Assembly: GCA_964016885.1 (NCBI GenBank)
Contig: OZ024740.1
Span: forward strand, 87,978,001 to 88,042,000
Reading direction: 5' to 3'
Length of the DNA: 64,000 nucleotides
Origin: Eledone cirrhosa
Lineage: Eukaryota
Of this stretch, positions 8,924 through 48,690 are shown piece after piece. The position numbers were made by a program, and so were the translations under genes. The first letter of the stretch is position 1; each line of letters starts with the position of its first letter. The notes beneath the pieces were generated by a model. The model was not told where the DNA came from, did no database searches, and worked only from the letters and a program-made list of their open reading frames with translations.

Positions 8924-9005
8924 ACTTCCAACTAATTAGTTTCTGGAATGGAGTAGATACATCTTCCGAAGAAGGTGTAGAGAAACATCCCGTCATCAGG
9001 AAAGT
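8924..9005 (-). ncRNA. Extended-stem-II type I hammerhead, family E
   Basis: ACTTTC-CTGATGA-C-GGGATG-TTTCTC-TACAC-CTTC(TTCG)GAAG-ATGTA-TCTACTC-CATTCC-A-GAA-ACTAATTAGT-T-GGAAGT. Confidence 0.85.
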
Positions 9006-10021
9006 CAATTCTCATATAAGTTCCAGGCAAAGCGAGGACACTGGAAGCTTATTAAAAATAAATCAGTGAATAGGAAATAGCAAAGCGTGGATTTACTTCC
9101 TAGCCATTGAGAAAATCACTGCCTCTGTGTCTGTGGCAAATTCAAAAAGAATCGAACACGTGACATCTAGGTCAATCGGTGGAAAGTGGGTTGTTAATAA
9201 GACAGCGGCTAGCCTGCTACCGTAGCAGCAGTCATGGCCAGTATTGCTCGACAAATATTTTGGAGATAATAATAAAGAATTTATATCTAGTAACATATAT
9301 ATACATACAAATGCATATCGATGCTAGCAAATATATAGGTTTTGTCTTAATAACATTGTTGTTCAATGCATGGGGTTGCAGAACAATAATATAAGAGACG
9401 TAAAATAAGAAAATTATAAAATTAACTTACTTACTAAAATATCACTTCCAACTAATTAGTTTCTGGAATGGAGTAGATACATCTTCCGGTGATATTTTAG
9501 TAAGTAAGTTAATTTTATAATTTTCTTATTTTACGTCTCTTATATTATTGTTCTGCAACCCCATGCATTGAACCACAATGTTATTAAGACAAAACCTATA
9601 TATTTGCTAGCATCGATATGCATCTGTATGTATATATATGTTACTAGATATAAATTCTTTATTATATATATATATATATATATATATATATATATATATA
9701 TATATATATGCATCTGTATGTATATATATGTTACTAGATATTAATTTTTTATAATTATCTCCAAATTATTTGTCGAACAATATTGGCCAAGACTGCTGCT
9801 ATGGTAGCAGGCAGGCCGCTGTCTTATTAACAAACCACTTTCCACTGATTGACCTCGATGTCACGTGATTGATTCTTTTTGAATTTGCCACAGACGCAGA
9901 GGCAGCGATTTTCTCAATGGCTAGGTATTCAGTCCACGCTTTGCTATTTTCTATCCACTGAATTATTTTTGAATAAGTTTCCAGAGTCCACGCTTTGCCT
10001 GGATACTTAGCTGAGAATAGT

Positions 10022-10101
10022 CTTCCCTGACGACGAAATGATTCTCTATATTTTCTTCGGAAAGTATATTTATTCCATTTCAGAAACTAATTAGTTGGGA
10101 G
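10022..10101 (+). ncRNA. Extended-stem-II type I hammerhead, family E
   Basis: CTTCC-CTGACGA-C-GAAATG-ATTCTC-TATA-TTTTC(TTCG)GAAAG-TATA-TTTATTC-CATTTC-A-GAA-ACTAATTAGT-T-GGGAG. Confidence 0.85.
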
Positions 10102-10288
10102 TGAAATTTTAGTAAGTAAGTTAATTTTATAATTTTCTTATTTTACGTCTCTCATATTATTGTTCTGCAACCCCATGCATTGAACCACAAAGTTACTAAG
10201 ACAAAACCTATATATTTGCTAGCATTGATATACATCTGTATGTATATATATGTTACTAGATATTAATTCTTTATATATATTGACACCC

Positions 10289-10339
10289 AGCTTCCTGAAG
10301 ATTTCATCTGAATGAAACAGTACTAGTCCTGTAGAAGCT
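10289..10339 (+). ncRNA. Type I hammerhead, family A (element 10281-10433)
   Basis: AGCTTC-CTGAAGA-T-TTC(ATCT)GAA-T-GAA-ACAG(TACTAGTC)CTGT-A-GAAGCT; GUA site; AATAAA downstream. Confidence 0.85.
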
Positions 10340-44852: not shown

Positions 44853-45028
44853 AATTGTTTCTACTTTAGGCACAAGGCGAGCAATTACCCAGTGCATTAC
44901 TGGTACTTTATTTTATCGACCCCGTAAGGATGAAAGGCAAAGTCAACCTCGGCGGGATTTGAACTCAGATCGTAAAGGGACGTAACTATGCTGGAAAGCA
45001 TGGCGTCCGACCCTCTACCGATACTACC
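44853..45028 (-). mobile_element. Dominant SINE with about 19 bp TSD
   Basis: GAAAGACGAATTYGATAAT on both sides. An older decayed copy lies at 45365-45580. Confidence 0.93.
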
Positions 45029-48000
45029 AAGAAAGACGAATTTGATAATGTTCTCTGGTATGCACAAAGACGATATAGCAATGACTGGATCACATGTCTA
45101 CTTGACAAAGGCTGACATGTGCGAAAGATAAAAAGTAAACAACTAAAACAAAACAATAAAGGAAAATAAATGGAAATCGTGGACATAATGTAATGTAGTG
45201 TAACAGCTTGTTGAGGAATCGAAACGTCGTCACTGGGCTCCTCACTTAGATACACTACATAGAAAACAAAGGGTTCAAGTGTTGCATTCACATTAATGTT
45301 TCGGAGCTCACCGTCATTCATAATAAGATGATCTTGAAATTAGAAACCAAAAAGAAGAGAAATATTGATTTCTCCCTTTGGCACCAAGCCACATATTTAC
45401 TGAGGGTAGTGTCGGTGCCGGTAGGGGTTATAGGAGGAGTAGTTCAGTTGATTAAAAGCGACTCCAACACATGCCTGGAACCTATTTTATCGATCGGAGA
45501 AATATAAAAACTAAATCGATTTCAGCAGGATTTCAATAACAAAAAATATGTAAGTAAATACTGTAAAACATTTCGTTAGACACATTTAAGGAAATTGCTG
45601 CTGATGCTGCTCCTGTTTAGATTGATGTTTTTATTGTTGCTGATGTTGTTTAGTTTCTAGGTCGAGGCGGATTGAGCAAATCAAATGCGTTTTAGTCATA
45701 ACCACCGCGTTTTCCTTTTCCCAGTTATCATATATCTGGTACTCGACTATCAAATGCATTTTTAGATAATCGTAGAGTGCGTTTCAAGGGACATTTTGAA
45801 GTTTTTTTTCTATCGGTTAAAATGGCCACGTAAATGCTCCCTTCTTGACTCGATTGGAATTTTTTCACCAAAGAACACCATGCTCCATCTAAGATAGAGA
45901 CCATGTAGAGAGGATATTGTATACAATGAAAGTGAAATGAATTTATAGATAAACTATTAGGCTATCTACCAAACCTACCTATAGATCGAAAGGTTTTCAA
46001 ATATGCACGAACACACACACACACACACACACACACACACATATATATGTGTATGTATATATATATATATATATATATATATATATATATATATATATAT
46101 ATATATATATATATATATATATATATATATATCATCATCATCATCATCATCATATATACATATATATATATATATATATATATACGCATAATATATATAT
46201 TTTAGTCTTCACATTCATTATTATTACTACACACACACACCCACACACACATATAAACATACACACATATAGATACACATACACACACATATATATATAT
46301 AGGTATTAGTATGGTGCTCTGTTGTTCTCTCTCTGTTGTTTTTGCCGAGAATAAGTAAGTGACATAGTCACTACTTTAAAACTCATAGGGTCTTCTAAAT
46401 GTTTTTAATTAAAAATACAGTATATTGCCAAATATACTATACATACATTATATATATAATGATGAATTTGAATTATGTTGACATTAAAAATGGCCTAGCG
46501 AAAAGATATGATATTAGCCAACAACAGCGACGATTAAGCGACCGGTCTCATTCTGGGAGAGGTTGATTCATAAACGTGAGGCTCTTGGCTCCCAAGGGTG
46601 TCATTTTGAATGTCAAAAGTGAAAATTTAGCTAAGTTATGGACTGGGAAGAATGTTATTTAGGTAAGAAATCCAAATGAGTATATATCAAATGAAATAAC
46701 AATATATGAATTAACAGTTTATGAATAAACCTGCTTATTTAGACTAATCCTACTTGGGATTAAATAGCTATTGATGCTTACGAAGTTTGCTCATTTTAAT
46801 AAAGTGCTCAGGGGAAAATTCCATAGATAATAATTCAAAAGGGAAGAGGGATTGAAGAAATGTAAGATCGCAAGGGGAGTAAATTGCTTTGGGTCTCTGA
46901 AAACCAATGTGCTAAAGAAATTAAAGAAAATCAACAAGATATTTTTGTCAAATTCTAACAGGAAAGGAAATGACTGCTGATTAGTTCTAACAGACAATAG
47001 TGGACTTCGAAAATAAATTAAATATAAACAACGGCATGACCGTCTTATTAAGAAGTATGAGCCCTGAGTTCTACTATATCCCAAGATCAATAACCTGTGG
47101 TTATACATACATAGATTCGTATATATATATATATATATATATATATATATATATATATATATATATATATATATATATATATATATATATTGACATTGTG
47201 AGCGTTAGAATCATAGCAGTTGAACTATTGTAAACAAGAGTTGAGATAATCGAATAAGATAATCTTTAGAGAATGAAAAATGCGGACAGAAGTGATTGCG
47301 AGTAATCGAACCTCACATTTTAGAGGGATGGGAAGTTTGATTCCTCGCATCCTTTCAATGGTGCCAAGTTCGATTCTGTGCAGACATTTCTGTACCCTTT
47401 TCTCTGCTTCTCAGAGTATTTTATCCGATCTTCTCAACTATTATTTACAATGATCGAGCGTTATTTTGCATTTGGGGTGCTCACAATTTCAAATTTCAAA
47501 TTCACTCACCGCTTTGTAATTGTTTATATACACACACACGTACACACACACACGTACACACACGCACACACACACACACACACACACACACACACACACA
47601 CACACACACACACACACACACACACATACACACACACACACACACACACACACACACACACACACACACACACACACACACACACACACACACACACACA
47701 CACACACACACACACACACACACACACATATATGTATATATATGATATTAAAAGTGACACTCGTCCTGAATAACGGAATTTATTTGAAAATGAAATACGT
47801 TATTCAAATATAGAAATTTCATAATGGTGTGTATTTAAATCTCCCATGTCCTACCTGTCCGTCACTGGACTTTAAAAAGAACATGAAAGCCGAAAATTGT
47901 GCAAAGCAGAGGAATACAAAGAATGATAATGCACATATATGCAGAGGAATGCTTTTCAGCTGAGATTGAAGAACAAACCGCCGATATCCAGTTATTTGCG

Positions 48001-48606
48001 TTTGAACGCACTGGTTGATCAGTTTTCTTACCGAATTTAGTCGATATATCTCGGTGAAAGATACACACACACACACACACACACACACACACACACACAC
48101 GCACAGATACATATCTGCAAATATATATGTTATATAGGTGATATATAGTTCAAACGATCAAATGCCGTTGTACTAGCATGGTTATGTTTGAAGCATTTTG
48201 GTAAATGAATCTTTTACAATCAATAAAATAGCCATCTTTTAGATGTAGTCTCAAATGTTTGTGTGCGTTTAGCTGCACTATACCACAAATACGCGCAGTA
48301 CTTCAGTGCTTAGCTTACTTGAGTTTTGTAAAAAGTGTGAACTGAAATATTTCCTGGCTCTCAGATCGTAACGTTGCTTTTAAAGTATACAGGTATGGCG
48401 TACTGATTTACACACACACACACACACACACACACACACACACACACACACACACACACACACACACACACACACACACACACATATATATATATATATA
48501 TAGACAAAATTGGTTCCTTCCTCATTCCCTCTCATCCGGGAACAGTTTTGTATGGCGCCAGTTTGTGATTCGAACTCGGGAATTTTATATTCTCCGAGCG
48601 AGAAGA

Positions 48607-48690
48607 ACATTCTGACGAGAGTCCCCTTCTCAATGGAAGTCCGCCTGGATTATCCATTTATTTTGTGATTTGAAACCGCACGGTAAAGGT
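48607..48690 (+). ncRNA. Extended-stem-II hammerhead, family G
   Basis: ACATT-CTGACGA-GAGTC-CCCTTCTC-AATGGA-AGTCC(GCCT)GGATT-A-TCCATT-TATTTTGT-GATTT-GAA-ACCG(CA)CGGT-A-AAGGT. Confidence 0.78.

Follow-up and report, generated by a model that had tools for sequence, protein, structure and literature searches.

The type I hammerheads of what are likely Penelope-type repeats in Eledone cirrhosa carry a conserved helix of 4–7 bp that links the sequence flanking stem I on its 5′ side to the 5′ strand of the internal loop in stem II. This helix is likely a pseudoknot that aligns stems I and II and would speed cleavage, a reading to which we assign a probability of about 0.65. An extended type I hammerhead with a covarying long-range helix had been put forward in an earlier note, and permutations, pair counts, trees, and matched distances from the core all bear it out. 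As judged from sequence, the helix constitutes a predicted stem I–stem II periphery pairing of at least 4 bp with covariation, in the sense of Perreault 2011.

Hammerhead motifs in the window

The window, which is the whole 64,000-nt stretch of DNA analysed, contains eight type I hammerhead motifs (Table 1), five belonging to family E, two to family F, and one to family G; two of the E copies are the arms of a single inverted repeat. The earlier note had listed four flank/loop pairs, and all eight of these stretches were located where it had placed them by reading the sequence directly: GAGAAT pairs with ATTCTC in the E copies with cores at 10027 and 40337 (40324-40329 with 40352-40357 in the latter), GAGAAG with CTTCTC in the G copy, and GGAAA with TTTCC in the F copy with its core at 28480. 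The cleavage triplet of the 40337 copy is CUU, and this copy is probably damaged, because CUU breaks one stem III pair.

Table 1. Hammerhead motifs and associated repeats in the window, with the paired strands of the long-range helix
Feature	Position	Strand	Core	Long-range helix	Predicted cut	Remarks
Family E hammerhead	8923..9013	-	8999 (CUGAUGA)	9013-9009 with 8984-8980, 5 bp	after 8930	GAAA at 8943
Inverted partner pieces of the 9743..10280 repeat	about 8868-9488				 	self-BLAST
Non-coding E repeat	9743..10280	+				about one unit, bearing the 10027 ribozyme; self-BLAST
Family E hammerhead	10013..10103	+	10027	10013-10018 with 10041-10046, 6 bp	after 10096	GAAA at 10083; palindromic stem III
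Family E hammerhead	22292..22385	-	22372	22385-22380 with 22357-22352, 6 bp	after 22299	
Family F hammerhead	27757..27846	-	27834	27846-27842 with 27819-27815, 5 bp	after 27764	inverted partner is the 28480 F copy
Family F hammerhead	28468..28556	+	28480	28468-28472 with 28495-28499, 5 bp	after 28549	
Family E hammerhead	39749..39841	-	39827	39841-39835 with 39812-39806, 7 bp including one G.U		left arm of the 39675-40489 inverted repeat
Family E hammerhead	40323..40415	+	40337	40323-40329 with 40352-40358		right arm of the 39675-40489 inverted repeat
Family G hammerhead	48600..48692	+	48612	48600-48605 with 48626-48631, 6 bp	after 48685	

The core and the cleavage triplet are present in 173 distinct copies, the core being required by the search patterns, and the motifs agree with the sequence definition of type I hammerheads and are predicted ribozymes. 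The stem I test was passed by 175 and the stem II test by 151 of 190 motifs from the same genome, versus 18 and 8, respectively, of 108 unrelated pattern matches. The stem II arm spans ~40–60 bases and consists of a proximal stem, an internal loop, and a capping hairpin; in a 20-row alignment of family E, pairing stands at 97.5% in the proximal stem, 95.0% in the distal hairpin, and 96.0% in the long-range helix. The features described earlier, namely four variants of the proximal stem II, an internal loop, a distal hairpin, and two cUUCGg loops, are all present in the sequence. The C.A first pair of stem II, which had been described as constant, is found throughout family E (74/74, partly forced by the search pattern) but not in F, G, and J, where the first pair is U.U, G-C, G.U, A-U, or A.C. 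An ENE-like triple helix was also considered and was rejected as not general, because U predominates in the other strand of the internal loop in E, F, and G (U fraction 0.62–0.81), whereas that strand is A-rich in J (U 0.21, A 0.58).

The stem III loop is perfectly palindromic in 154 of the 173 distinct copies, and the centres of the palindromes are altered between copies with self-complementarity retained. For palindromic copies, stem III is calculated at 0 to −0.9 kcal/mol in the monomer and at −9 to −20 kcal/mol as a dimer duplex. Comparison with the Rfam hammerhead models, a check proposed along with the motifs, gave no hammerhead family among the 41 matches of nine loci at E-values up to 10, and no hammerhead model among the 150 of 339 window matches listed.

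Evidence for the long-range helix

In 67 representatives, the duplex formed by a copy's own flank and loop has an energy of −6.06 kcal/mol, compared with −3.95 ± 0.23 kcal/mol for swapped strands (0/20,000 permutations), and at least 5 bp are formed in 54 of them. Control duplexes gave −3.29 kcal/mol with shuffled loop strands and −2.61 kcal/mol when the flank was set against the opposite loop strand, and a helix score of at least 4.5 was reached by 153/190 motifs of the same genome versus 17/108 unrelated matches. Pairs were counted on MAFFT alignments built without structure information, and separately for each lineage, because the all-lineage MAFFT alignment shifted the flanks one to two columns out of register. 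The F/G alignment is 90.5% paired with 24 two-sided cells (0/500 shuffles; best slid register, 70.6%), and that of J is 88.8% paired with 12 two-sided cells (0/500 shuffles; best slide, 61.2%). In family E alone, 75 of 500 shuffles reach the percentage paired; covariation holds for F/G, for J, and for the combined set, but is weak within E.

When the helix columns were masked for tree building, changes in flank and loop coincided on a branch at positions 2, 3, and 6 in F/G, at position 4 in J, and at position 3 in E, where subfamilies carry either G-C or A-U; the E changes are in two subfamilies that are multi-copy genome-wide. About six independent two-sided changes preserve the helix. Position 4 in J and L is unlike that in E/F/G, the change in J consists of transversions, and the J helix strands are of mixed base composition. 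At its first positions (G-C, then mostly A-U, G-C), the helix is conserved not only in pairing but also in sequence. The mean distances of flank and loop strands from the core are 10.7/10.8 in J, 11.9/13.2 in G, 12.2/12.9 in F, 13.6/13.6 in E, and 15.5/15.8 in L, and the two strands move away from the core together (Spearman 0.80 over 66 non-independent rows). In 12 off-register copies, U stands opposite A in 12/12, an observation that adds little.

Several results are less favourable. Within-lineage swaps did as well in 2192 (E), 4522 (F), 1327 (J), and 8313 (L) of 20,000 cases, none of which is significant, and the value for G (12 of 20,000) is inflated because one J row was misfiled as G. 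Among the first 100 matches listed, the most abundant F/G subfamily has an A.G mismatch inside the helix, one-sided breaks occur in about ten single representatives, and folding of single strands gives weak z-scores (+0.09 to −1.71). Because purine-rich strands face pyrimidine-rich ones in E, F, and G, strands swapped between families retain fairly good pairing. If a purine-rich flank and a pyrimidine-rich loop had descended from one ancestor, pairing might have arisen by chance and been free of selection, and the low complexity of the E, F, and G strands, the weak E-only statistics, and the non-independence of rows that share ancestry are all consistent with such an origin. The independent two-sided changes on the trees, the retention of the helix in J with mixed-base strands altered by transversions, the much lower pairing of slid registers, and the matched arm lengths largely refute it, and we regard it as very improbable.

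Lineages and genome-wide distribution

The strict patterns match the genome ~15,500 times, versus 28 times in controls; the E pattern alone gives 10,142 matches (0 with the reversed-pattern control) and the F/G pattern 1,808 (1 in the control). Two additional lineages, J and L, were recovered beyond E, F, and G. The earlier note had described three unrelated families, a view that is contradicted by the recovery of F and G with one common pattern and their mutual alignability, and by an 11-base downstream motif shared by E, F, G, and J. Among copies long enough to contain it, this motif occurs in 70/82 (E), 7/9 (F), 19/24 (G), 10/16 (J), and 0/3 (L). E, F, and G are accordingly placed, by sequence, in one superfamily, and since the families are related, the pseudoknot design was probably inherited once and not arrived at three times.

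Beyond these lineages, no such helix was seen by eye in H and I, two other families with a long stem II. A non-exhaustive metagenome scan found the full architecture in 0 of 41 distinct filtered motifs from at least 118 stretches listed, and a non-exhaustive viral scan gave one marginal case among 67 motifs from 120 stretches.

Repeat units and host element

Tandem units measure 459, 483, 522, 542, and 571 bp, each with a complete hammerhead and no coding frame; E tandem units elsewhere in the genome are 522–571 bp long, and at least one array of nine units at 483-bp spacing occurs among the matches listed. Tandem and inverted units sit in (TA)n. By their sequence organization, the units are tandem, non-coding, and bear type I hammerheads, as non-LTR retrozymes do, and these 460–570-base repeats are likely non-autonomous Penelope-type retroelements. 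A unit of E, F, G, or J was joined directly at 0 of 52 GIY-YIG/Penelope frame loci, a small sample of 10,596 first-look candidates, and units near such frames, where inspected closely, are separate insertions beyond (TA)n. No autonomous Penelope partner was found when 15 flanking frames were scanned against Pfam, when GIY-YIG domains were searched for, or in 22 Penelope-frame regions, the regions searched holding neighbouring insertions only, and comparison by eye showed no resemblance between the units and the 3′ end of the Naiad consensus from octopus (Craig 2021).

Element junctions showed no enrichment at the predicted cut in a genome-wide test of one E subfamily, in which five events fell at the cut and five at a control position 5 bases upstream. 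In the local data, a few element 5′ ends lie 4–9 bases downstream of the predicted cut, and one multi-copy joint falls on it. The equal junction counts in that subfamily would suit a helix kept for a non-catalytic role, either as a fold recognized by a partner reverse transcriptase/endonuclease or as a co-transcriptional folding intermediate, with the ribozyme itself slow or idle. Conservation of the first helix positions in sequence as well as pairing points the same way, as do Penelope minimal hammerheads, which are reported to cleave poorly in vitro and for which other roles are not excluded (Cervera 2014). Such a role is nonetheless quite improbable, given that the catalytic core and GUH triplet are kept in all lineages (the search patterns require them), and that the helix joins exactly the strands of tertiary docking in other hammerheads and scales in position with both stems.

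Relation to known hammerheads

Base-paired stem I–stem II pseudoknots are reported in all three hammerhead types and in ~40% of representatives (Perreault 2011, PMC3088659). In the type II pseudoknot, loop I pairs with the strand 3′ of stem II; this pairing is described as needed for fast cleavage, and its breakage as slowing cleavage 20- to over 100-fold (PMC3088659). By strand mapping, the present helix makes the same contact as this 4–6-bp Watson–Crick helix, in which the bases immediately preceding the 5′ strand of stem I (loop I) pair with those immediately following the 5′ strand of stem II (the 3′ tail). In contrast to type II, however, the open end here is at stem I, an internal loop and a capping hairpin are present, stem III is weak and palindromic, and an animal retroelement takes the place of a bacterial or phage host. 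Because the same two strands are joined, the architecture is a new variant and not a new principle. The suggestion of an undescribed subclass thus survives in part: the contact is known, but the specific form (internal loop with capping hairpin, palindromic stem III, Penelope-type repeat) has no Rfam match and was not found in the literature covered, although figures and alignments of Perreault 2011 and Cervera 2014 could hold a closer precedent.

Pseudoknotted type I hammerheads from a mouse gut metagenome, Yarrowia lipolytica, and human C10orf118 have the same topology with a base-paired stem I–II contact (PMC3088659, PMC10187678), and the 5-bp pseudoknot of the human ribozyme is reported to be required for activity at 0.5 mM Mg2+ (Najeh et al. 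2023, PMC10187678). In the mouse gut and Yarrowia examples, the partner is the loop of a 2-bp stem II, whereas here an internal loop within the long arm supplies the partner through its 5′ strand. With the Penelope minimal hammerheads and animal non-LTR retrozymes, the motifs share the type I form, a short stem I, and an extra base after CUGANGA, as well as a palindromic stem III and tandem and inverted non-coding units (Cervera and de la Pena 2014, PMC4209133; Cervera and de la Pena 2020, PMC7229834; Li et al. 2026, bioRxiv 10.64898/2026.07.22.740005); the units described here are longer (460–570 bp versus 220–390 bp in the retrozymes of these papers). The Penelope minimal hammerheads are said to lack tertiary contacts (review PMC6155905), and shortening the 5′ end of a Schistosoma hammerhead of this kind is reported to be without effect. 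Of the features given for them by Cervera 2014, the palindromic, unstable helix III is found here, but the simple helix II free of tertiary contacts is not: their 7–8-bp hairpin is replaced by an internally looped arm with a capping hairpin and a covarying long-range helix.

The type III hammerheads of toad and termite HDV-like RNAs and of Drosophila pseudoobscura also have a long, internally looped helix with a capping hairpin, the 5′ loop strand of which pairs with the other arm (PMC7936874), although in mirror image, the extended arm being helix I and its partner loop II (de la Pena et al. 2021, PMC7936874). The PK hammerhead of PDB 8YDC (Zhan et al. 2024, PMC11300833) likewise combines a hammerhead core with a pseudoknot, which there substitutes for helix II and here is added to an existing one.

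Proposed function of the helix

In the mechanism suggested by hammerhead biochemistry, the helix and stems I and II would form together, as in the type II pseudoknot, and the pseudoknot would keep stems I and II side by side, leading to faster cleavage; the capping hairpin would close off the internal loop and offer the loop's 5′ strand for pairing. With 2–3 bp and a palindromic loop, stem III would be too weak within a single copy; two copies would therefore pair through it, and the 5′ half of each (its flank, stem I strand, CUGANGA, stem II, and GAAA) would cut the neighbour's GUH site. Both strands of the long-range helix lie within the 5′ half, so that the helix could fold ahead of the partner strand's arrival. 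Cutting would free unit-length RNAs from tandem transcripts, and these may be copied by a Penelope-type reverse transcriptase provided in trans.

Covariation reveals pairing and not the direction of its effect, and the helix could instead have been selected as a brake that keeps a single copy slow or mis-docked, restricting cutting to dimers or to moments when the helix opens and protecting monomeric or circular RNA. In the plant satellite RNA sCYDV-RPV (+), a type III hammerhead, loop 1 reportedly contacts the internal loop of helix II. Its helix II is long and interrupted by internal loops (Carbonell 2006, PMC1636495 Table 1), as is the arm described here, the loop-to-loop contact controls cleavage (review), and the title of a 1991 paper states that an alternative tertiary structure attenuates cleavage (Miller and Silver). 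Moreover, in 4 of 11 folds the long-range helix forms the base of a nested hairpin that closes over the core and displaces stem II. A conserved nested "off" hairpin was rejected, since 240 of 300 swaps were equal or better for the enclosed segment. Arm lengths agree between lineages, which is what stems I and II lying side by side would require; type II ribozymes and the human C10 ribozyme are reported to cleave more slowly when the equivalent helix is disrupted; and the weak palindromic stem III would already act as a brake on the monomer. A braking role is thus unlikely, and activation of cleavage is, in our analysis, the most likely effect of the helix.

A brace similar by eye, of 10–13 bp, is present in three Naiad consensus sequences from a published supplement. 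It is tentatively suggested, though doubtful at present, that long-armed Penelope-type hammerheads are a large, overlooked, fast class, in which a base-paired brace pre-folds the catalytic 5′ half for cutting a partner copy by way of the palindromic stem III, and that this brace recurs in the permuted Naiad hammerheads.

Significance

Penelope-associated hammerheads have been described as minimal, slow in vitro, and without tertiary contacts, their role in transposition being left open. Against this background, one genome holds ~15,500 pattern matches that Rfam misses and in which recurrent compensatory changes keep a base-paired tertiary contact. The contact is known from other hammerheads; bracing of the ribozyme of these repeats is likely, and a report of it was not found. 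If the brace gives fast cleavage, self-cleavage would be under selection in these elements, and their natural subfamilies are ready-made pairs for disruption and rescue. Descriptor searches that allow only short loops on stem II count too few animal ribozymes. If the reading that includes Naiad and the long-armed class is true, the brace would be general in animal Penelope ribozymes and overlooked by standard descriptors, and the view of these ribozymes as contact-free and intrinsically slow would be revised.

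Design and Abundance of the Ribozymes

The window contains eight hammerheads of a long-stem-II type I design (five of lineage E, two of F, and one of G), and each copy shows the same order of elements: flank, stem I, CUGANGA, proximal stem II, internal loop, capping hairpin, GAAA, palindromic stem III, GUH, and stem I again. Direct reading of the sequence confirmed the positions and letters of the eight flank and loop stretches cited in an earlier note, as well as its four proximal stem II variants and two cUUCGg loops. The Rfam hammerhead models do not match these ribozymes in the nine loci tested, and no hammerhead appears among the matches listed for the window (150 of 339). 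Because single copies give ordinary folding z-scores (+0.09 to -1.71 in 11 of 11 copies), the support for the design is comparative rather than thermodynamic.

In the 3.0 Gb genome of Eledone cirrhosa, where (TA)n and retroelement fragments are plentiful, a strict E pattern yields 10,142 matches (0 in the control) and a strict F/G pattern 1,808 (1 in the control), while a relaxed search aimed at further long-stem-II motifs, in which lineage J surfaced, yields 2,429 matches against 397. A pattern with four-base stem III loops gives 4,090 matches against 27 in the control; sorted by eye, the first 100 listed comprise approximately 77 J, 7 G-like, 4 of lineage L, 10 of an unrelated repeat, and 2 noise. 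The sum of approximately 15,500 counts pattern matches, and decayed copies escape the strict patterns. The host units are non-coding, 459–571 bp long, tandem or inverted, and flanked by (TA)n; the type of ribozyme, the layout of the units, and their insertion in (TA)n suggest a Penelope ancestry. No autonomous Penelope partner was found in the loci searched around GIY-YIG or Penelope reading frames, and element junctions in one E subfamily are no more frequent at the predicted cut than at a control position. In one multi-copy derivative of E the entire ribozyme is missing, and the flank strand of the long-range helix is joined at its middle to the base that follows the predicted cut.

Features of the window and of further sampled loci outside it (L-numbers)
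Feature	Location	Strand	Remarks
LINE-like RT frame fragments, gag/protease-like frame, mariner-like transposase	window 6328-8761, 14112-16520, 23046-24611, 31606-32468, 49454-51168		translations by eye
tRNA match above Rfam gathering score	window 33854-33924	+	within fold-back 33654-34022; possibly a tRNA-derived SINE
Other hammerhead family, plain long stem II	window 17192-17592	cores 17299 (-), 17485 (+)	inverted repeat
Relatives of that family	L131 4575-4870, 7739-8034		inverted repeat 5' of RT + GIY-YIG Penelope frame
Short or plain hammerhead-like motifs, other families	window 25250, 39159, 34245, 42138, 42415	+, +, -, -, +	42138-type motif also 3' of Penelope frames in L308, L328
Family H, abundant long-stem-II hammerhead-like	L175-L202		palindromic stem III; stem II irregular, continuous
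Family I, abundant long-stem-II hammerhead-like	L174, L179, L208-L220		palindromic stem III; very diverse
11-base downstream motif	window 9566, 10178, 22800, 28669, 40510; 9368, 28131	+ (first five); - (last two)	
Splice-donor-like motif (example)	window ~10110-10120		
Joint of ribozyme-less E derivative	10016 to 10100		L291-L293

Evidence for a Long-Range Helix

Comparison among copies argues that the long-range helix, which pairs the flank upstream of stem I with the 5' strand of the stem II internal loop, is real and under selection. Clustering of 173 distinct copies gave 74 representatives, of which 67 were kept and seven, with the flank replaced by a junction or microsatellite, were dropped; at least five contiguous pairs occur in 54 of the 67. 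Their own flank–loop pairs average -6.06 kcal/mol, compared with -3.95 +/- 0.23 kcal/mol after swapping (0 of 20,000 permutations), -3.29 for shuffled loop strands, and -2.61 for the other loop strand. When strands are swapped only among representatives of one lineage, E, F, J, and L show no significant difference, and a single J row misfiled as G inflates the value for G. A helix score of at least 4.5 is reached by 153 of 190 own-genome motifs versus 17 of 108 unrelated pattern matches; the flank helix was not seen by eye in families H and I.

The covariation that the earlier note had proposed for E, F, and G is borne out in the F/G alignment (90.5% paired, 24 two-sided cells) and in J (88.8%, 12 cells), each with 0 of 500 shuffles and far above all slid registers, but is weak in E alone (75 of 500 shuffles); the proximal and distal stems of E covary strongly. 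Since alignment shuffles ignore kinship between copies, trees were built with the helix columns masked, and these place joint flank and loop changes at F/G positions 2, 3, and 6, J position 4, and E position 3, where the variants are multi-copy across the genome. At helix position 4, both J and L are unlike E/F/G. About six independent two-sided changes thus appear to have kept the helix. One-sided breaks occur in approximately 10 single representatives, and one very abundant G subfamily carries an A.G mismatch flanked by five intact pairs.

The mean core-to-far-end distances of flank/loop are 10.7/10.8 in J, 11.9/13.2 in G, 12.2/12.9 in F, 13.6/13.6 in E, and 15.5/15.8 in L (66 rows, one skipped, from five non-independent lineages), and this paired lengthening is as would be required if two stems lay side by side with their tips linked. 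A nested fold is unlikely to be the selected state, as the segment enclosed by the helix holds no conserved hairpin; nested folds nevertheless occur in 4 of 11 minimum-energy structures.

Relatedness of the Lineages

The families, previously taken to be three unrelated ones, prove to be related: one pattern covers F and G, F and G align, and an 11-base downstream motif is common to E, F, G, and J, so the long-stem-II design was probably inherited once. Among copies long enough, the motif is present in 70 of 82 E, 19 of 24 G, 7 of 9 F, 10 of 16 J, and 0 of 3 L, lying 80–120 bases downstream of the ribozyme in E, F, and G and about 300 bases downstream in J. All seven window occurrences fall inside mapped E and F repeat regions, and the motif is a candidate signal for the proteins of a partner element. 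In E, F, G, and J alike, the predicted cut is followed 15–25 bases later by a splice-donor-like motif; introns are known within Penelope terminal repeats. The constant C.A first pair of stem II described earlier holds in E but is specific to it, and the Penelope ribozyme table in the Craig 2021 supplement (PMC8557442) also includes C.A and U.U at this pair.

Comparison with Known Hammerheads

Base-paired stem I–II contacts are described for all three hammerhead types in PMC3088659, and what appears to be new is the form of the arm and helix in a type I hammerhead. In known type I contacts, as far as these sources describe them, the partner is the loop closing a short stem II (PMC3088659, PMC10187678), whereas here it is an internal loop within a lengthened stem II; an extended form in type III hammerheads, outlined in PMC7936874, is the mirror image of the present one. 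Penelope hammerheads are described as lacking tertiary contacts (PMC4209133, PMC6155905), and the present ribozymes differ from the minimal Penelope form in lacking a simple helix II. Among type I hammerheads, a literature search of text turned up none in which the 5' flank has as its pairing partner an internal loop within a long stem II arm.

Naiads are reported to be without canonical hammerheads. Three Naiad 3' ends among the consensus sequences of the Craig 2021 supplement (PMC8557442), placed among nematodes judging from their position in the file, nevertheless look by eye like permuted hammerheads in which stem II contains the cleavage strand, the C-S-G order that Eckert 2023 reports in two sequences only. 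Each appears by eye to carry a 10–13-bp helix that pairs the stem I 5' flank with the bases immediately following the 5' strand of stem II, at the same place as the E/F/G/J/L helix.

Proposed Role of the Helix

In type II hammerheads, according to Perreault 2011 (PMC3088659), a pseudoknot joins loop I to the tail 3' of stem II and forms without a second strand; its shortening slowed cleavage approximately 20-fold and then more than 100-fold, and compensation rescued it. Mapping of strands between permutations suggests that the present helix, in hammerheads that are type I by topology, is the same strand pair and would work in the same mode. The helix therefore most likely docks stems I and II and activates the predicted ribozyme, a reading to which we assign a probability of roughly two in three. 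The main rival, that the helix acts as a brake restraining predicted cleavage, seems unlikely, although a tertiary contact in the sCYDV-RPV hammerhead reportedly attenuates cleavage, going by the title of a paper on it. In that hammerhead, internal loops likewise interrupt a long helix II (PMC1636495, Table 1). Docking and activation are favored because the type II pseudoknot, formed by what would be the same strand pair, is needed for fast cleavage.

The loops of stem III are palindromic, and their central bases have changed without loss of self-complementarity; since central palindrome pairs are impossible inside one hairpin, dimers are indicated, such as those described for Penelope hammerheads in Cervera 2014 (PMC4209133). 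Because GAAA comes after both strands of the helix, the catalytic half could fold in advance and then cut a neighboring copy.
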